Part shown: one piece after another, positions 11,398-22,255 of the stretch | Position numbering within the stretch: position 1 is the stretch's first letter | Layout: each line of letters opens with the position of its first letter | From: a virus | Lineage: Duplodnaviria > Heunggongvirae > Uroviricota > Caudoviricetes | Length of the DNA stretch: 22,661 nt | Direction: 5' to 3' (one strand) | IMG/VR virus record: IMGVR_UViG_2703718836_000001 | The notes under the pieces: generated by a model | Databases searched by the model: none | What the model saw: only the letters and a program-made list of their open reading frames with translations | Told to the model about the DNA's origin: nothing | Made by a program: the position numbers and the translations under genes

Positions 11398-11598
11398 TCA
11401 GCCCTCTTTACTGGTCGTGGCTTTTTTCTCTTTTGTCGCTTTACTGCTTTTTGCACTGGTTCCGCGCTCTGCTAACCCGGCCTGAAGTGCAATCTCCTGC
11501 ACCCGGGCAGGAAGCGCCCCGTCGTCATACTCACCGGCCCGAATGACCTCAACACGCATACCGTCCGGTGACCATTTCAGATCTTGTTTCAGGATCAT
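11398..11598 (-). CDS. Hypothetical small protein with Lys/Ser/Thr-rich C-terminal tail
   Basis: 66-aa ORF with ATG start between the major capsid and connector genes; no family recognised. Confidence 0.4.
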   Translation of the reverse strand: MILKQDLKWSPDGMRVEVIRAGEYDDGALPARVQEIALQAGLAERGTSAKSSKATKEKKATTSKEG

Positions 11599-12867: not shown

Positions 12868-13554
12868 TTAGAAGTTCAGATTTTTCAGTGCATTCAGTGC
12901 AGTGCCCACATCCTCAGCGTCGCGCAGGGACAGTGCGCCATAGCCCCCGGCCATGAATGCTTTGGCCTGGGTACGGGAGAGTCCGACATCACGCAGGACT
13001 CTTTCGATTTTTTTTTGTTCGGGGATTTCCCCGCGGGCCAGTGCGTTCTTGACGTCGCTGATCCGCGCCTCGTCGTTAGACGGGAACGTCACCAGGCTGA
13101 CTTCCCAGAGGTCGATTTCTTTCAGCAGAAAGGCTTCTTTGCTCCGGTCGTATTCCCAGTCTTTCAGGACGTACCCAATAGAAAGGCCGGTTAACGAACC
13201 GGCCTTCATGTGTGCATGTGCGCGTTTTGCGAGGGGATCATCATCAATAAGCAACCGTCCCCTGACGTAAAGCCCGACATCGTCTTCCTTCATTTCGGTG
13301 TAAACACCGATGGGCTCATCCATGCGGTGCTGCCAGAGCAGCGCAGGTAACGCTTTTCTGTCACTCCACGCCCGCAGGGAAGCAGCAAATGCCCCGGACA
13401 TCACCACATCATCGTGGCTGTCCTTTACACCAAAGACGGAGCCATACCCTTCAAACTCACCGGAGTCACTGACAGATTTCAGACTCAGCGGTACATCAAG
13501 ACGTTGTTTCGTCTGCATTGGCGTTATCCTTCTGCTTACCGGCTTTACTGCCAT
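12868..13554 (-). CDS. Prohead protease (HK97 family, S78-like)
   Basis: 228 aa; position between portal and capsid; N-terminal region typical of HK97 prohead proteases. The real start may be the internal Met at about 13518. Confidence 0.85.
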   Translation of the reverse strand: MAVKPVSRRITPMQTKQRLDVPLSLKSVSDSGEFEGYGSVFGVKDSHDDVVMSGAFAASLRAWSDRKALPALLWQHRMDEPIGVYTEMKEDDVGLYVRGRLLIDDDPLAKRAHAHMKAGSLTGLSIGYVLKDWEYDRSKEAFLLKEIDLWEVSLVTFPSNDEARISDVKNALARGEIPEQKKIERVLRDVGLSRTQAKAFMAGGYGALSLRDAEDVGTALNALKNLNF

Positions 13555-14737
13555 CGGAGGGTTTCGTGGTCATGTTCATCGGTGTGAGATAGACATCACC
13601 ACCGGGACGCGGATTCATATCTTCCAGGTCGCGGCAGTCATTGGGAGAGTAAATTCCCCAGTTGATCCCGGTGGCGTAGGCTTCAAAACGGGACTTCATA
13701 TCCCCGCGCAGTAACGCCCCGGCGTTAAATTTGGCGTAATAAACGCCCTGCTTACTTTTTCGTACCAGTCCGGTGTTGATCCGCTGTTCAATGCGGGTCA
13801 GATACGGCACCAGTGAATAGTTGATAAATCCCAGCCCCAGCTCTTCGATATTGTTGAAGGTGGCGCGATCGGTGTTCTGCACCATGTGCAACGGCACCCG
13901 GAACAGACGACAGATTTCTTCAAGCTGAAACTTGCGGGTTTCCAGGAACTGGCTGTCCTCGGCGTTCAGCGCCATCGACTTCCAGTCCAGCCCCATCTCA
14001 AGGATCATCGGGCGGTGAGCATTGCCAAGCCCGGTGTGACGCTCCTCAAAATCTTTCTTCAGGCGCTCATAAGCCTGATCTGACAGCGTCTGCTCTGTAC
14101 GCAACACACCCGACGTCACCGCACCATTGCTGAACAGTCTGGCCCCGTGCTCTTCGGTCGCTGCCGCCAGAGATATTGCCTCGCGGGCATAGGCGATGGG
14201 ATTCAGCCCCACCAGTCCGTCCAGCGTCAGCGTGCGCACATGCCAGATATCCTCCTGGCTCAGTACATCCGTGGAGCCATCCGGGAATGTGACCTGATAG
14301 ACCGGCTCCCAGCTACTGTTAAGCTTCGGTACCACACAGCCGGGATCGACGGGCAGCAGTTCAGCCACTTCGCCAAATGCTTTCACTTTGTAGGCGTAAA
14401 AGTTTCCCCGCAGGCACAGACAGGTGACCACCAGCTCCCAGAACTCCTGCGGCGTCATATAGCCATTGGGATGCGTGGAGATCAGCTTATGCAGACGTTC
14501 GCCGGTGGCTCTCTGCTTCAGGCTGCCGTTCAGGTGATACAGGTTGCAGGGCAACATCCCGACCGACTCCGCCAGCACCCTGACACAGGAAAAAACCGCC
14601 GTCAGTCGCATGGCCCGCTGGCTGCTGATCTGCTTTCCGGTATAGGTGTCGTAGGACAACCCGATAGCATCCGCCAGCTCTGCTGGCGTGGTCACCGGTG
14701 CGTCACTTTTTCGTTGAAATAATCCCGAAAAGAACAC
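13496..14737 (-). CDS. Portal protein (HK97 family)
   Basis: 413 aa; position after TerL; apparent GTG start overlapping the stop of the upstream small ORF. Confidence 0.85.
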   Translation of the reverse strand: MFFSGLFQRKSDAPVTTPAELADAIGLSYDTYTGKQISSQRAMRLTAVFSCVRVLAESVGMLPCNLYHLNGSLKQRATGERLHKLISTHPNGYMTPQEFWELVVTCLCLRGNFYAYKVKAFGEVAELLPVDPGCVVPKLNSSWEPVYQVTFPDGSTDVLSQEDIWHVRTLTLDGLVGLNPIAYAREAISLAAATEEHGARLFSNGAVTSGVLRTEQTLSDQAYERLKKDFEERHTGLGNAHRPMILEMGLDWKSMALNAEDSQFLETRKFQLEEICRLFRVPLHMVQNTDRATFNNIEELGLGFINYSLVPYLTRIEQRINTGLVRKSKQGVYYAKFNAGALLRGDMKSRFEAYATGINWGIYSPNDCRDLEDMNPRPGGDVYLTPMNMTTKPSDGSKAGKQKDNANADETTS

Positions 14738-14919
14738 TATTTACCTCCGCCGACAGACGGCTGTGTACGGTCGAGATATCGCGCCACCAGCCACGACCAG
14801 AACAGGCACAGCCCCCCGGCAACAATAAAACCCGCCGGGGGATAAATCAGCCAGGCTCCATACGCCAGCAAAAGCGCACCCAGCACGCCCACCAGTGGCG
14901 CGAGAATTATCAGAAACAT
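14737..14919 (-). CDS. Small hydrophobic (predicted 2-TM) membrane protein
   Basis: 60 aa [60 protein letters not shown]; ATG at 14919 with GAGG RBS 5 nt upstream; packed between TerL stop and portal start. Confidence 0.5.
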
Positions 14920-14930
14920 AATGACCTCGG

Positions 14931-16664
14931 TTAAAGCGAGCGGATCCCATAGGACTCAATGTGGTCAGACAGCGTGTCTTCTTTCTCGTACAGCATGGCT
15001 CTGCCAACCGCCATAATCAGCGCAACTGCACCATCGATTTTGTTTTCCGCCTGCTCTTTGACGGGCTTCACCACATCATCGTTACCCGGAATGGTTTTGC
15101 CGACCACGTTGCCGATACACCAGGTCATGATGGGATTGCCATCATGATGAAAGCGCCCCGATTCAATTGCCGCTTCCAGCTCTTTCATCGGGTCGGACAT
15201 GTTGGTGTAGTTCTGAATGATAGTGATGGGGTTCAGGTCTTCATCAGCAAGGTCATGTGACAACCCGGTCGCCCCGAAGGGGTCGATGGGTGACTCACTG
15301 ACCGGGCTGATTTTGTTCGCCGCTTTGGCCTCCTCGAGGATGTAGCGATAATCCACCTCCGCACCATCGGTAACGGTCAGAACGCCCATTTCCACCCATT
15401 TCTGAAAGCGTTCGGCTGTCCGTCGATCTTCATTTTTCTCGACGCTGTACACCGTGTCATACGGTACCCAGAAACGCGGGGCCACACTGTAGTAATGCGT
15501 TTTACCGTCAATCTCGCGGGTATAAAGTCGCGCCATGCTGTTCATATCCAGCTTACGCGCCAGGTCAAAGGCCAGAATGCACGGCTGCCCCTCGAACTGC
15601 TCAAGGGTCAGTGATTTATCCTCGCAGCTCTGCCAGCTCACCAGGTTGAAATACGCCGAACGCGCCGACACCCAGATATTGAGGTGTTTTGTTTTAAAGA
15701 CGTTTGCCAGACGGGCGTTATTTTTCGCACGCTGCTGCTGACTTAACAAAAATTCGCGATAAACCGACACGCCAATATTTGGATTGGCTTTTTCCAGCAC
15801 CTGCGGGTCGGTCCAGTCGTCACCTTCATCAACGGTATAGATGATCCCGAACAGTTCATCATTAGGCACCGAGCCGTTGAGCATCTCGATTACTTCCCGC
15901 CGTTTGTCGTAGCACGGCCCCTCAATGTTGTACCCGGCGGTAGTGATAGCCCACATCAGTGGCTGACGTCGCGCCCCCATCCCGGTAAGCATCGTGGTGT
16001 AAAGCGCATCTGTGGCGTGCTCGTGATATTCATCCACCACCGCACAGTGGGGTGATGAACCATCACCGGGGTTACCGATCAGCGGTTCAAAACGCGCACC
16101 ATCCTCCGGACGGTTCATGTTTGAGGCGTTAACCTCAATCCCGAACGCTTCCGTCAGCATGGGTGTGCGTTTACACATCAGTCTTGCCGGACGAAAGACT
16201 TCCCATGCCTGTTTCTCCGTCGTGGCACCGGAATACACTTCCGCGCCGAACTCGTTATCACAGGCAAAACAATACAGGGCGACACCGGCAGAGATTGCCG
16301 ATTTGCCGTTCTTACGGGGGATTTCGGTATACACCTCCCGGAAGCGGCGCAGCCGGGAGCCTTTATTGACCCAGCCAAACGCGCAGCAGATCACAAAGAG
16401 CTGCCACGGCTCCAGCGTGATGGGCATCCTCTTAAATGCCCACTCACCCTTGGTGTGCGGCAACAGCTGAATAAATTTGGCGGCCCGTTCAGCCAGGTCC
16501 TTGTCGAAGCGGTAACGAAACGACTTACTTTTTTCCGCCATCAGGTCATCAAGATGGCGCTGGCAGGCCTGAATCACAAACTGGCAGGCCACAATCTTTC
16601 CGCGCACGACATCCCGGGCATACTGATTGGCAGCATTTACGTTGGGGTAAGATTTCCGGCTCAT
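14931..16664 (-). CDS. Terminase large subunit
   Basis: 577 aa; Walker A-like IPRKNGKSA; ATGA overlap with the TerS stop. Confidence 0.9.
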
Positions 16665-18682: not shown

Positions 18683-18973
18683 TCAATTCAGTAACTTTTC
18701 AGAGCCTGTGGCCAGTCTTTGGACACGCTGTTGTTGGACAATAGCTCGAATATGAGACTTGTCCGTATTACATTGCCCTAATGCAGATAACAAGCTCGCA
18801 TTTAAGTTGAGACTTGCACCATACGTCAGAGGGTCTGGTATGAGCGGTATAGGTGTTTCAGAAATCAAACTAGTTGGTAGTGGTGTAACCGGAGTGCTCA
18901 CGTAAACTGTCCGCGTACTTCCGCAACCGATCAGCAGCGGCAGCAGGCACAGGACGTGAAGCACAATCATCAT
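18683..18973 (-). CDS. Rz1-like o-spanin (outer-membrane lipoprotein)
   Basis: From the internal Met of ORF 18683..19141: MMIVLHVLCLLPLLIGCGS... (hydrophobic signal plus lipobox-like LIGC), Pro-rich mature part; starts inside the Rz gene in another frame. Exact start uncertain (a TTG two codons upstream is possible). Confidence 0.55.
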   Translation of the reverse strand: MMIVLHVLCLLPLLIGCGSTRTVYVSTPVTPLPTSLISETPIPLIPDPLTYGASLNLNASLLSALGQCNTDKSHIRAIVQQQRVQRLATGSEKLLN

Positions 18974-19250
18974 CCGCAATAGCCATTTTGATATCTTCCT
19001 GGGTTCTCTGTGACTCCAGTGCGATCTGCTGTTTTGCATGCTGGTTAGCCTCCAGAACTGTATTGAAGATTTGTAGTGATTGCAGGACGTTATTGGTAAT
19101 GGCTGTTGCTGATTCAGCATTTCGTACAGCCTCATCAGCACGTTTCTTTTCGTGCTGATATTTGCTGTAGTAGTGGTTGGCAGACCAGATGAAAGAACCG
19201 ATGACAGTAAAGATGAATGCAGAGATAGCCAGCTTATAGCTCAACTTCAT
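18870..19250 (-). CDS. Rz-like i-spanin
   Basis: 126 aa; N-terminal TM segment LAISAFIFTVIGSFIW then helical periplasmic domain; immediately downstream of the endolysin. Confidence 0.7.
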   Translation of the reverse strand: MKLSYKLAISAFIFTVIGSFIWSANHYYSKYQHEKKRADEAVRNAESATAITNNVLQSLQIFNTVLEANQHAKQQIALESQRTQEDIKMAIADDDCASRPVPAAAADRLRKYADSLREHSGYTTTN

Positions 19251-19710
19251 TTACCACCCCACCAGCCTCTTTAAACCGGGAAATCAGGTCACCGATTTTA
19301 TGTTCATACTGACCGTAACCTGCACCAGGTAACGACGCCCAGATATTGCTGCAACGATCGATAGCCTGACGAATATCGCCGCGATCAATCATCGGTAAAG
19401 CGCCACGCTCTTTAATCTGCTGCAATGCCACAGCATCCTGGTTTTTGGGAGAGAAGTCTTTCAGAGCAAGCTGCTTACGGTAGGCATCCCACCAGCGTGA
19501 AAGAAGCTGATAACGTCCGGCGGCTGTTGATTTGAGTTTGGGGTTTAGCGTGACAAGTTTGCGAGGGTGATCAGAGTAATCAGTAAACAGTTCACCGCCA
19601 ACAATAACATCATAACCGTGATTACGTGTCGGTTGTCGCCCGTTATCCGTTCCTTCTGACCATGCCACCATATCGAGGAAAGCTTTACGCTGGGAATTTA
19701 GTACCTGCAT
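19234..19710 (-). CDS. R: Endolysin, lambda R-like lytic transglycosylase
   Basis: 158 aa; QRKAFLDM.AWSEGTDNGRQ.TRNHGYDVIVGGELFTDYSDHPRKLVTLNPKLKST matches lambda R almost residue for residue as I recall it; AAGGAG RBS 6 nt upstream of the ATG. Confidence 0.9.
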   Translation of the reverse strand: MQVLNSQRKAFLDMVAWSEGTDNGRQPTRNHGYDVIVGGELFTDYSDHPRKLVTLNPKLKSTAAGRYQLLSRWWDAYRKQLALKDFSPKNQDAVALQQIKERGALPMIDRGDIRQAIDRCSNIWASLPGAGYGQYEHKIGDLISRFKEAGGVVNEVEL

Positions 19711-19713
19711 AAA

Positions 19714-20049
19714 TTACTCCTTAGAGCCACTAAACTTATTACCGATTACTCGCATTGCAGCTCCACGAATGGCATCAACACCGATCAGCCCAACGCCACC
19801 ACCAATGGCAACAGAAAGCGATTTAGGCCATCCGACATACTCAAGCGCGGATGCAAAAGTCAGCGTCAGAGCACCACAGAGCAAAATCTCGAGCGTTTTT
19901 CGCTTCCAGCCACCACCTCCGCCAAAATAGGCGATACGCAAACCAGCCATAACGATCGACATAATCACTGCCCCCAGCGGGGTGTCTCCACGCCACCAGC
20001 TCTGGAACAACTCCAGCCAGTCCGGCCAAGTATTTGGGTTATGAGGCAT
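19714..20049 (-). CDS. Holin
   Basis: 111 aa with about three hydrophobic segments and a charged C-terminus; directly upstream of the endolysin. Confidence 0.7.
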   Translation of the reverse strand: MPHNPNTWPDWLELFQSWWRGDTPLGAVIMSIVMAGLRIAYFGGGGGWKRKTLEILLCGALTLTFASALEYVGWPKSLSVAIGGGVGLIGVDAIRGAAMRVIGNKFSGSKE

Positions 20050-20145: not shown

Positions 20146-21537
20146 TCACTTAATAGGATTTGGTTTTATGTCGTCAAGCCAGTCGTTATCACCTCTTAGC
20201 TTGGCTACTCGTCCTTCAACATTAGTTAACGGTTTATAAGCAGAGTATTTGCCTATAGCCCTAGCAGAATGCTCTCCAGCAACACGATAATTTTGGAAGT
20301 CCAACTCAAGTCCATGCTGCTCCGCTCTCATTCGAATATAGCCACGAAGCATGTTTTCTCTAAATCGAAACCAAGATGGACGATTCCCTAAAGCAGGGAT
20401 GATGATGCATCCAAATGTCGGTTTCTTCAATGCATTGAACTTTCGCTCAAACGTGGATTTATCTAAAGGTGTTACATCAAGCGATTTGCAAATTTTAACG
20501 TACGATTCTGATATATGAGTCTTATGTCTGGTCAAATCAGCCATATCGGACATAGCCCAAAGAATATGCTTATATGACTCATCACGTCCCTCTGTTGCAT
20601 CCGTGTAACTTTGCCTTAAAGTTTCCGAGACTGAATCAATTGCATCATTTAACCCTTTAATGAAAAGGTTGTAGTCAACAGAGCTGTATTCACGTATTGA
20701 GCTTTGACATGTTAAAAGGATTTTTTCACAAATAAGATGAATGTAGTTCGGGAACCCGTCACTAAGACCCGCAATTTTATAGCGGACAGAATCATCGACA
20801 GTCAGGCCAAACTCATCGAAAGCATTATCAATTATTTGAAAACGACCATTCCATGGTAAACTATCGAGATGTACCTGATGTATTTGTCGCTCACTTGATT
20901 TATGCCCTCCGATTAAAGTAACGAGAGAATCACCAATCCCCGTAAAAATTAATTTTACTTCACACGCCTGATCACCAAGTTGCTTAATGAGTGATCCAAA
21001 CTTTTGTCGTTCTTCATCAGAGTCAATTTGGTCAAACTCATCGATAACTATATAAGGAATCTTTGAGTGAACTTTAGTTAAAAATTGCAACGCCCGAACG
21101 GCTGCAGAAACTGAGTCAATTTTCAGTTCTGGATAATTATATTTTTGATTTTGACCAGCATTGATACCACCAATTCCAGCCACATTTAAGCCAAAGCTCC
21201 ATCCCTGTGTATCGATTTTCTTATCCTGAGGTGTGCCTCGCAAAATAATGTCATTCATGACACTTGAAAAAGTGGATTCTTTCTCGCAGCCAACCAAAAT
21301 AGGTTCAGCATCTTCCTGCAGCTTAAAAGCAACAGTTTGCGCTAAGGATGTCTTTCCTACTCCGCGATCACCATAAATGAAAGCATGCCGACCTGTAGCA
21401 TAAAGCGCCAATTCGAGATCGGTTACATGTTTTTCACGTCCAAATAACAGTTCCATAGAAACAACTGGACCCGTTGGTCGCAAAACTTTATGCAGTTTAT
21501 GCATAAAGTCTCGCAAAGAAAGACCTCCACAGAGCAT
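20146..21537 (-). CDS. P-loop NTPase, AAA+/ATPase_2 (Arch_ATPase)-like N-terminal domain with uncharacterised C-terminal half
   Basis: 463 aa; Walker A GDRGVGKTS preceded by LLFGREKHV, Walker B YIVIDEFDQ, sensor-1-like LIFTG. AGGAGA RBS 6 nt upstream of the ATG. AT-rich (one hand-counted 60-nt stretch about 37% GC, against about 65% on a sampled stretch of the sheath gene). Confidence 0.8.
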   Translation of the reverse strand: MLCGGLSLRDFMHKLHKVLRPTGPVVSMELLFGREKHVTDLELALYATGRHAFIYGDRGVGKTSLAQTVAFKLQEDAEPILVGCEKESTFSSVMNDIILRGTPQDKKIDTQGWSFGLNVAGIGGINAGQNQKYNYPELKIDSVSAAVRALQFLTKVHSKIPYIVIDEFDQIDSDEERQKFGSLIKQLGDQACEVKLIFTGIGDSLVTLIGGHKSSERQIHQVHLDSLPWNGRFQIIDNAFDEFGLTVDDSVRYKIAGLSDGFPNYIHLICEKILLTCQSSIREYSSVDYNLFIKGLNDAIDSVSETLRQSYTDATEGRDESYKHILWAMSDMADLTRHKTHISESYVKICKSLDVTPLDKSTFERKFNALKKPTFGCIIIPALGNRPSWFRFRENMLRGYIRMRAEQHGLELDFQNYRVAGEHSARAIGKYSAYKPLTNVEGRVAKLRGDNDWLDDIKPNPIK

Positions 21538-21676: not shown

Positions 21677-22255
21677 TCAAGCACTTTCTTGCTCACTTTG
21701 CAATTTAAATCTGTCGCTATTTGTGCCAAACGCATCACATAGTGGAGCGTACAGGAGCGATTCGGCCAAACTTATCCATGTGTCAACTCGGCGGCGACAG
21801 GTAATGAATGCCCAGTCAGGATGTTTAATATGAAGCTCATTGGCCATTTGCAACTTGCTCTTACGCAGACGATACCGGCCAACAATCACACCGTATAGAG
21901 AACGGTAATCATTATTCATCAGCACCGAGGCGATCACACCGTCAATCTTCAGGCCTTCATCGTCCGAGCAAAACGCCAGACTACTTTTGTTTTTACTGTT
22001 GAGTATTTCGCGCAAATAAGCTTCGAGCTCTGGTTTCGTAATGCCTGACTTTTTCATACGGCGCAGCGCATCGTTGATTGCAGTTTTGGTAATTTTGCTG
22101 GATACAAGCAGTTGGTTAAACATGTTACCGCTAGTCCCTCCACTGATATAAGACCAACGCCCCCACATGCGGAGCTTCCCCTGAACCCAGATACTTTCCA
22201 GAGTACGAAGACGAACCATTTCACCCGTTTTGCCAATTTCAGAAGGATTAATCAT
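21677..22255 (-). CDS. Putative late-gene antiterminator (Q-like)
   Basis: 192 aa; position between the nin-region protein and the late promoter/lysis cassette; LRMWGRW resembles the ERWGAW motif of 21-type Q proteins. Family assignment is tentative. Confidence 0.45.
   Translation of the reverse strand: MINPSEIGKTGEMVRLRTLESIWVQGKLRMWGRWSYISGGTSGNMFNQLLVSSKITKTAINDALRRMKKSGITKPELEAYLREILNSKNKSSLAFCSDDEGLKIDGVIASVLMNNDYRSLYGVIVGRYRLRKSKLQMANELHIKHPDWAFITCRRRVDTWISLAESLLYAPLCDAFGTNSDRFKLQSEQESA

Follow-up and report, generated by a model that had tools for sequence, protein, structure and literature searches.

What is a small membrane protein doing in the head module of a tailed phage, between the genes for the terminase large subunit (TerL) and the portal? 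The question is raised by a prophage sequence of 22,661 nucleotides (nt) (IMG/VR record IMGVR_UViG_2703718836_000001, Caudoviricetes; hereafter the window), in which a preliminary description had noticed an open reading frame (ORF) at 14737–14919 encoding a 60-amino-acid (aa), two-helix membrane peptide. These coordinates are right, the strand, which had been left unstated, is minus, and hydropathy and an AlphaFold2 model agree on two helices. We find that the small ORF is a genuine gene and a conserved member of the YmfR/phrog_502 family. Judged by its sequence, it is an object already known and annotated under these names, and the earlier account had not recognised it as YmfR.

A YmfR-family gene at the terminase–portal junction

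The window protein matches phrog_502 (“membrane protein”) over residues 1–55 with E = 3.8e-27. It is identical at 54 of 60 positions to Escherichia coli K-12 YmfR (b1150, cryptic prophage e14; RefSeq name ‘IPR020297 domain-containing protein YmfR’), the differences being F2I, L3M, I4L, I32V, G36A, and P54S, and at 59 of 60 positions to WP_000478565.1. In K-12 MG1655, ymfR is flanked by what is left of the terminase gene (ymfN/aaaE) and of the portal gene (beeE), with identical ribosome-binding site (RBS) and TAGTG junctions; YmfR resembles the window protein in length, slot, RBS, and TAGTG overlap, but TerL and portal are remnants in e14 and intact in the window. Of 5426 complete E. coli genomes, 1603 match a 651-nt query that spans the junction; there, RefSeq labels the matching ORFs “ymfR: protein YmfR” or “hypothetical protein”, and matches at 97.5% nucleotide identity are named ymfR.

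The family extends well beyond E. coli. We found 163 homologues in a set of 5.8 billion proteins, and a profile built from 18 homologues recovered 396 representatives of 50% identity clusters at E ≤ 1e-3, nearly all of 45–90 aa; 511 IMG/VR contigs carry the family. Homologues occupy the same slot in phages phiP27, ST64B, SfI, SfII, SfIV, phi467, phiKO2, and PY54, in Marinobacter phage AS1, and in Azospirillum phage Cd. Those of phiKO2 (gp3), phiP27 (‘putative integral membrane protein’), ST64B (Sb3), SfI, SfII, and SfIV (membrane protein), and PY54 (an unannotated ORF) always lie between TerL and portal and overlap the portal start, and none has an assigned function. Identity is ∼90% in the Sf phages and, relative to the family member P0135, ∼42–50% in phiKO2 and PY54, and phiKO2 gp3 additionally overlaps TerL by 7 nt.

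Curated models were less informative. Scanned against Pfam, NCBIfam, and PADLOC, the window protein and distant members were assigned no model and gave only chance-level matches to membrane families. For the window protein itself, Pfam gave two such matches and no gpW, holin, or PF06341 at E ≤ 1, and PADLOC gave no model at E ≤ 1. A tblastn search of phage records with the distant member P0160 gave no match. Nothing specific came from the PDB, searched by structure with Foldseek and by sequence with a profile (the best match, V-ATPase subunit e at E = 1.2, is a generic hairpin), and neither the structure nor the sequence searches of the PDB found a solved structure containing a relative. Literature searches found no functional study of YmfR, phrog_502, or DUF1056; ymfR is mentioned only in e14 gene lists, and DUF1056 only in a table of Pfam models.

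The gene is packed tightly against both neighbours. The TerL stop codon (TAA, 14931..14933) is followed by 11 nt (CCGAGGTCATT) and then by the ATG of the small ORF at 14919. The good GAGG site credited to the ORF in the preliminary description lies 5 nt before this ATG and is kept in relatives from other genera. Downstream, the TAG stop (14739..14737) shares one base with the portal GTG (14737..14735), which produces the TAGTG overlap that had also been reported, and the last codons of the small ORF (GGC GGA GGT AAA TAG) hold the GGAGG of the portal gene 6 nt before its GTG. The small ORF belongs to the late head operon, with its own RBS right after TerL, and the suggested co-translation with the packaging genes agrees with co-expression as inferred from this layout.

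The possibility that portal translation begins further upstream, making this frame a portal leader, had been raised together with the original observation. In Mangrovibacter, Scandinavium, Klebsiella, and Citrobacter prophages, the portal start is an ATG exactly at the overlap (TAATG or TGATG), followed by the same MFF... N-terminus. Because the portal start is conserved at the overlap in these relatives from other genera, the small ORF is not a portal leader; a leader or out-of-frame origin was rejected on this ground and because many variable codons carry synonymous changes alone when read in the YmfR frame. Three competing ORFs (14698..14934 on the plus strand, 14741..15007 and 14703..14825 on the minus strand) have no support.

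Variation among relatives points to a functional protein. The ORF is intact, with 60 codons, in 80 of 80 IMG/VR loci whose portals are 99–100% identical, which carry 21 protein and 34 nucleotide alleles; the absence or interruption in close relatives that would speak against a real gene is not seen. Among 79 of these loci, synonymous diversity is similar in the small ORF and the portal gene (piS of 0.056 and 0.061), the ratio of non-synonymous to synonymous diversity (piN/piS) is 0.255 and 0.010, respectively, and many variable codons are synonymous-only, mostly at third positions. Pairwise ratios of non-synonymous to synonymous substitution rates (dN/dS) against relatives from other genera are 0.17–0.35 for the small ORF and 0.01–0.08 for portal and TerL. 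The small gene is under purifying selection, with a constraint much looser than that on its neighbours. Codon 54 (14758..14760, minus strand) is the extreme case: across the 79 prophages it encodes serine in 52, proline in 19, methionine in 5, leucine in 2, and glutamine in 1 (TCG, CCG, CCA, ATG, CTG, or CAG), with almost fixed flanking codons, a hypervariability that may reflect relaxed constraint or diversifying selection.

In composition, the small ORF (GC content 0.59; GC at third codon positions, GC3, 0.639) resembles five neighbouring genes (GC 0.54–0.58, GC3 0.60–0.68). Our search for transcription signals was a consensus scan only: it returned three promoter-like sites against 2.0 ± 1.6 expected, none positioned to drive the small ORF, and no minus-strand terminator. 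The sole nearby minus-strand promoter-like match ends inside the ORF.

A few database entries related to the family deserve a separate remark. A contig labelled ‘MAG: Bacillota bacterium’ (JAEWTL010000102.1, L004 in our set of loci) carries terS–TerL–ymfR–portal–protease with 98–99% protein identity to the window and a ymfR homologue at 90%, and a 1764-bp record named ‘Enterococcus phage Efm 3-10’ (OR844959.1) holds a YmfR homologue of E. coli-type sequence; both are probably mis-binned or contaminating enterobacterial prophage DNA. In Shigella flexneri CP182557.1 (4001–4179; L012), the small ORF has a length of 179 nt and its match is split over two frames (residues 1–35 and 27–60), which indicates a 1-nt deletion. 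Database proteins P0057, P0059, P0076, P0097, P0143, and others are similar frame-hybrid versions, possibly pseudogenes or sequencing errors.

Predicted hairpin and its linkage to the portal gene

The small protein is strongly hydrophobic up to residue 46, with two hydrophobic stretches and 15-residue Kyte–Doolittle means of up to 2.76. An AlphaFold2 model from a 32-sequence alignment (mean pLDDT, the model's per-residue confidence, of 80) places helices at residues 2–25 and 29–52, separated by a turn at 26–28 and followed by a disordered tail. Under the positive-inside rule, the protein is predicted to form a helical hairpin with both ends in the cytoplasm and with the turn, YPPAG, on the periplasmic side of the inner membrane. 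Charges are distributed accordingly across the family: N-terminal extensions, where present, are rich in lysine and arginine (K/R; 3.3 against 0.65 aspartate and glutamate residues), and the C-terminal tail carries K/R in 81% of members. YPPAG itself occurs in 120 of 208 family sequences; K/R is found in the loop in only 7%, and the turn is uncharged in 93%.

Conservation centres on the turn. The window protein has the core motif G-x6-G-x-W ... Y-P-P-A-G ... G, which runs from late helix 1 through the turn into early helix 2. It also has all of G14, G21, W23, G30, and G35, which are invariant or at least 90% conserved in the 32-sequence alignment of distant members. Members down to ∼35% identity share G14, G21, W23, G35, and the Y-P-P-A-G turn. 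Column entropy is lowest at the turn (1.0 bit), stays at 1.0–1.5 bits over the turn and the adjoining periplasm-proximal helix halves, and is higher on the cytoplasmic side (2.5 bits in the helix 1 half, 2.2 bits in the helix 2 half, and, highest of all, 2.9 bits in the C-terminal tail). The tail ends family-wide in GG[EKD], which matches GGAGGT or GGGGGT ahead of the portal start; this ending in the close family is the portal RBS read as protein. Natural tandem duplications of the hairpin occur in P0155, P0179, P0180, and P0213.

The order TerL–hairpin–portal–protease persists where portals are only 28–35% and TerL proteins 20–25% identical, as seen in 15 genome and 80 IMG/VR loci, all of which were located via the hairpin. 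The stop codon of the hairpin gene shares 1 or 4 nt with the beginning of the portal gene in most of the 80 distant IMG/VR loci. The partner that stays with the hairpin is the portal: three genome loci (L011, L047, and L057) and many IMG/VR loci have a TerL of another clade (585 aa, 37% identity), a hairpin at 63–68%, and a portal at 69–82% identity. Across 27 non-redundant loci, pairwise identities of the hairpin correlate with those of the portal at a Spearman coefficient of 0.92 and with those of TerL at 0.69, and in 35 locus pairs with portals at least 90% and TerL less than 50% identical the hairpin is still ∼90% identical; the pairs are not independent, and these figures are descriptive. 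Intruding DNA lies between TerL and hairpin in three loci (L017, L024, and L031) and between hairpin and portal only in L018. The family is found with differing tail types, the prophage in the window being contractile-tailed and phiKO2 and PY54 being siphoviruses. By these comparisons, the hairpin is inherited with the portal gene and not with TerL.

Two observations concern the flanking proteins. The C-terminus of TerL is kept despite 37% overall identity (G-I-R-S-L and stop at 14931..14948, minus strand, in the window; G-V-R-S-L and stop just upstream of position 4001 in L011), so the clade swap joins at, or preserves, a conserved pentapeptide just before the RBS of the hairpin gene. All sampled HK97-family portals have an aromatic and basic amphipathic stretch near the N-terminus (14708..14737, minus strand, in the window; portals of loci L017–L108), such as MFFSGLFQRK, GLFGRLAR, WWARLKSWF, or FWSRFWSRL. 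It comes directly after the methionine in hairpin-linked portals and after ∼2–17 polar residues in most others. In Burkholderia vB_E184 and Streptococcus Javan102 the stretch is near the start without a hairpin ORF, and we made no use of this loose pattern from a small sample.

The starting premise, that HK97-type modules run TerL straight into the portal, applies to part of the group. HK97, whose portal is 32% identical to that of the window, has no hairpin ORF, and its TerL overlaps the portal directly; among relatives of the HK97 portal the hairpin is found in 0 of 80, and a large ORF, presumably TerL, directly abuts the portal in 79 of 80. The hairpin ORF is likewise missing from Acinetobacter fLi-Aba02, Pseudomonas pAN, Caulobacter Kronos, Burkholderia vB_E184, Moraxella Mcat16, and Bacillus Carmel_SA, and from Streptococcus Javan102, where a MerR family transcriptional regulator gene stands between TerL and portal. 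In contrast, Morganella IME1369_02, of HK97's own subfamily, has a hairpin ORF of 53 aa, as do 80 of 80 relatives of its portal, and hairpin ORFs precede the portals of Ralstonia Dina and Vibrio K263. Small two-helix ORFs recur ahead of HK97-family portals and are stably kept within clades, and because small hydrophobic ORFs are common in this slot (the YmfR family, the Morganella/Ralstonia type, and DUF1056 in Streptococcus phage Sfi21), the premise holds for some clades only, namely HK97, 79 of 80 of its relatives, and several other phages.

Profile comparison links several of these hairpins. In hhalign, the Morganella/Ralstonia type aligns with the YmfR family over 49 columns (probability 94.8%, E = 5e-8), and the Vibrio K263 ORF reaches a probability of 88.7%. 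The comparison does not reward just any hydrophobic hairpin, because orf59c of Sfi21, which served as a control, scores only 0.5%. This DUF1056 (PF06341) protein likewise sits between TerL and an HK97-type portal, with 59 aa and two hydrophobic segments. It matches PF06341 at 7e-10, whereas the window protein does not match that model at E ≤ 1; it shows no detectable homology to the YmfR family (0.2 bits against the family hidden Markov model, HMM), and a 17-nt gap separates it from the portal gene where the window has an overlap. To judge from these scores, orf59c is an analogue of YmfR or has diverged past recognition.

Possible roles of the small protein

We tentatively regard the small protein as an inner-membrane factor, made late and linked to the portal, that assists head assembly or packaging, a role that we consider possible, if short of probable. 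It corresponds to the third option of the preliminary description, an unusual packaging accessory factor, and best fits the sequence evidence, namely an exceptionally close and ancient association with the portal that depends neither on TerL clade nor on tail type. Ribosomes ending the small ORF would re-initiate on the portal gene, so that the peptide would be made late, at roughly portal-like (low) levels, and in lytic growth only. Because phage head genes cluster with their functional partners, such a peptide would most likely act with the portal, the procapsid, or packaging, and it could provide a membrane site for the portal vertex or a packaging step. The HK97 clade manages without the gene, so the role would be accessory and lineage-specific rather than universal.

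The functional model for this proposal is T4 gp40, which is membrane-associated, works with the portal at the start of head assembly, and is the only documented case of its kind. According to a review (PMC3185693), head initiation in T4 needs a membrane protein contacting the connector, and membrane association has not been shown for other phages. The similarity to gp40 initiating portal-vertex assembly would be one of logic, not of sequence: gp40 has 114 aa, is highly charged and without a hydrophobic segment, and its gene does not adjoin the portal gene.

Several observations weigh against a role in head assembly. The parts of the protein predicted to be cytoplasmic, on the portal's side of the membrane, are the least conserved, and the periplasm-proximal half and turn are the best conserved, a pattern that fits an in-membrane or periplasmic partner, or a structural constraint on the hairpin, better than a tail docking on the portal. 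HK97, 79 of 80 of its relatives, and several other sampled phages assemble heads without a hairpin gene. The small protein evolves ∼25 times faster than the portal at non-synonymous sites. The T4 precedent lends no sequence similarity either, as hmmsearch with all filters off did not report gp40 against the family HMM at E ≤ 1000, and the searchable literature yielded gene lists but no experimental work on ymfR function.

The same conservation pattern is an argument for a late membrane effector that acts on the host envelope and not on the head, the position before the portal merely supplying late, low-level expression; we consider this somewhat unlikely. Such an effector might time lysis or modulate the holin, alter membrane permeability, act on a host inner-membrane target, or, in the lytic cycle, keep the DNA of other phages from entering. 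Conservation concentrated in the outer-leaflet half of the hairpin and the periplasmic turn, with freely varying cytoplasmic parts, would suit it, as would the invariant small residues G14, G21, G30, and G35, of a kind suited to tight helix packing or oligomerisation, the natural tandem duplications, and a gene that is dispensable in the HK97 clade and evolves faster than structural genes, with a single hypervariable site, a trait common among genes for host interaction. T4 Imm, class II holins (S21 among them), and the HK97 gp15 moron are small proteins of the inner membrane that have one or two helices and end in a charged C-terminus, a general layout that the window protein shares. The window ORF, however, lies outside the lysis cassette, ∼4 kb away in the head operon, and the prophage already has that cassette in complete form (∼18683..20049), with a lambda-type holin (PF05106, 19714..20049) and Rz/Rz1 (18683..19141). 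Searches gave no Pfam holin family, no PADLOC model, and no likeness to T4 Imm (0.5 bits when scored against the family HMM), the conserved turn may merely reflect the needs of a very tight hairpin, and an envelope role leaves unexplained why the linkage to the portal survives TerL swaps, portal divergence to 28–35% identity, and both sipho- and myovirus tails.

Were the peptide itself secondary, the short ORF could be a translational-coupling device that delivers ribosomes to the portal start and so sets portal dosage relative to TerL. The portal's GGAGG and start codon, which lie within the final codons of the ORF, the conserved overlap, a terminal GG[EKD] that the RBS accounts for without any demand from the protein, and the relaxed constraint relative to the neighbours are all in keeping with such a device. 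Yet G14, G21, W23, G35, and YPPAG are invariant or nearly so across the 396 cluster representatives, down to ∼35% identity, and dN/dS is well under 1; a mere spacer would not retain a two-helix hydrophobic fold across Proteobacteria. The junction messenger RNA (14700–14810, minus strand), folded in search of a structure hiding the portal start, is unremarkable (z = −0.19) and has no unusual fold by which initiation at the portal would come to require translation upstream, and HK97-type genomes couple TerL to portal without such an ORF. We therefore hold coupling as the sole function to be quite improbable.

A prophage-expressed moron that benefits the lysogen, for example by excluding superinfecting phages, was the first suggestion of the preliminary description and now appears very improbable. 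PHROGs does place phrog_502 in the category “moron, auxiliary metabolic gene and host takeover”, and the conserved face is periplasmic. In addition, ymfR is intact (L111, 2550..2732) in the decayed e14, where TerL is a chimeric remnant (ymfN/aaaE) and the portal a 157-aa fragment (beeE), a survival that may be fortuitous for a 183-nt target or may hint at host-side use. But the ORF is not an autonomous transcription unit, unlike exclusion and moron genes: the 11 nt to TerL leave no room for a separate promoter, the consensus scan gave promoter-like sites at chance level and no terminator after it, its translation is nested with that of the portal, and its base composition is that of the neighbouring genes. 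Its presence is clade-stable and syntenic with the portal at depth rather than sporadic (80 of 80 close relatives, 80 of 80 of the Morganella type, 0 of 80 in the HK97 clade), and neither PADLOC nor T4 Imm offered a match.

Finally, the hairpin might belong to the virion or the ejection apparatus, being housed in the head or at the portal and serving to cross the inner membrane at infection. Its head-module position beside the portal, independent of tail type, would allow this, and some GenBank records label YmfR homologues “head-tail joining protein W”. That label appears to be positional only: lambda has a small gene between A/TerL and B/portal, but gpW is a soluble head-completion protein, whereas the window protein is a hydrophobic hairpin with no gpW or other structural Pfam match at E ≤ 1, and window-type modules have their own head–tail adaptor and head-closure genes downstream, as in the near-identical prophage L001. 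A protein hydrophobic from residue 2 would be expected to insert into the membrane of the producing cell, and the searches of solved structures found no relative, which together leave a place in the virion extremely improbable.

A broader form of the head-accessory reading can be put forward as speculation, and we think it unlikely as a whole. YmfR-type hairpins, including the Morganella/Ralstonia and Vibrio types and with DUF1056 as a Gram-positive analogue, may make up a Proteobacteria-wide superfamily of inner-membrane proteins whose translation is coupled to that of HK97-family portals and which give the portal vertex a membrane site, perhaps oligomerising and nucleating or holding the portal ring at procapsid initiation or packaging.

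The surrounding prophage and wider meaning

The features of the junction are collected in Table 1.

Table 1. Annotated features around the TerL–portal junction of the window
Feature	Coordinates	Strand	Remarks
TerL	14931..16664	minus	577 aa; Pfam TerL_ATPase and TerL_nuclease; phrog_9 at 2.6e-197
GAGG Shine–Dalgarno of small ORF	14925..14928	minus	5 nt 5′ of ATG; sequence reading
YmfR-family small membrane protein ORF	14737..14919	minus	60 codons and TAG stop; phrog_502 at 3.8e-27
Helix 1, residues 2–25	14845..14916	minus	carries G14, G21, W23; AlphaFold2, alignment, hydropathy
Tight turn Y-P-P-A-G, residues 26–30	14830..14844	minus	uncharged, predicted periplasmic; best-conserved family segment
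Helix 2, hydrophobic part, residues 31–46	14782..14829	minus	invariant G35; AlphaFold2 helix 29–52, alignment
Variable C-terminal tail, residues 47–60	14740..14781	minus	basic at start, predicted cytoplasmic; final G-G-K codons are portal RBS
GGAGG Shine–Dalgarno of portal gene	14744..14748	minus	within last codons of small ORF
TAGTG stop/start overlap of small ORF and portal	14735..14739	minus	sequence reading
HK97-family portal	13496..14737	minus	413 aa, GTG start; Pfam Phage_portal 4.4e-108; phrog_12 2.2e-146

Other parts of the prophage drew our attention independently of the small ORF. Between the antiterminator Q (21677..22255) and the holin (19714..20049), an interval that is a classical lambdoid cargo slot, lies a 463-aa P-loop NTPase ORF (20146..21537, minus strand) with AAA_16, AAA_22, and nSTAND1 matches; in the same slot, L001 carries a KwaB-like (Kiwa) gene and a hypothetical gene on the other strand. 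From these matches, the interval looks like a swap site for defence genes and the NTPase like a candidate Avs/STAND-type anti-phage gene. Between the holin and Rz/Rz1, in the endolysin position, a 158-aa ORF (19234..19710, minus strand) has no Pfam match at E ≤ 1e-3, and L001 annotates a GH24 protein there. A further ORF (11398..11598, minus strand), between the major capsid and head–tail connector genes, encodes a hydrophilic protein of 66 aa with a tail rich in lysine, serine, and threonine; it is hypothetical in L001 and has no Pfam match.

The peptide that had seemed wedged into the packaging genes turns out to be a normal and already annotated component of a head module that is very common among E. 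coli prophages. The wider point, modest but real, is that a small membrane protein has been kept fused to the portal gene across deep phage divergence. Should it act on the envelope, it would be a late-gene host-interaction factor hidden in a structural operon. Should it provide a membrane site for the portal vertex, membrane-anchored head initiation, documented only for T4 with gp40, would be widespread in temperate HK97-like phages, and how HK97-type clades manage without the gene would become a pointed question. A superfamily of portal-coupled hairpins with a Gram-positive analogue would be a reasonable experimental lead, if no surprise for this window, and a conserved portal-coupled membrane partner would offer a cheap, testable lead on how each HK97-type procapsid comes to hold just one portal.

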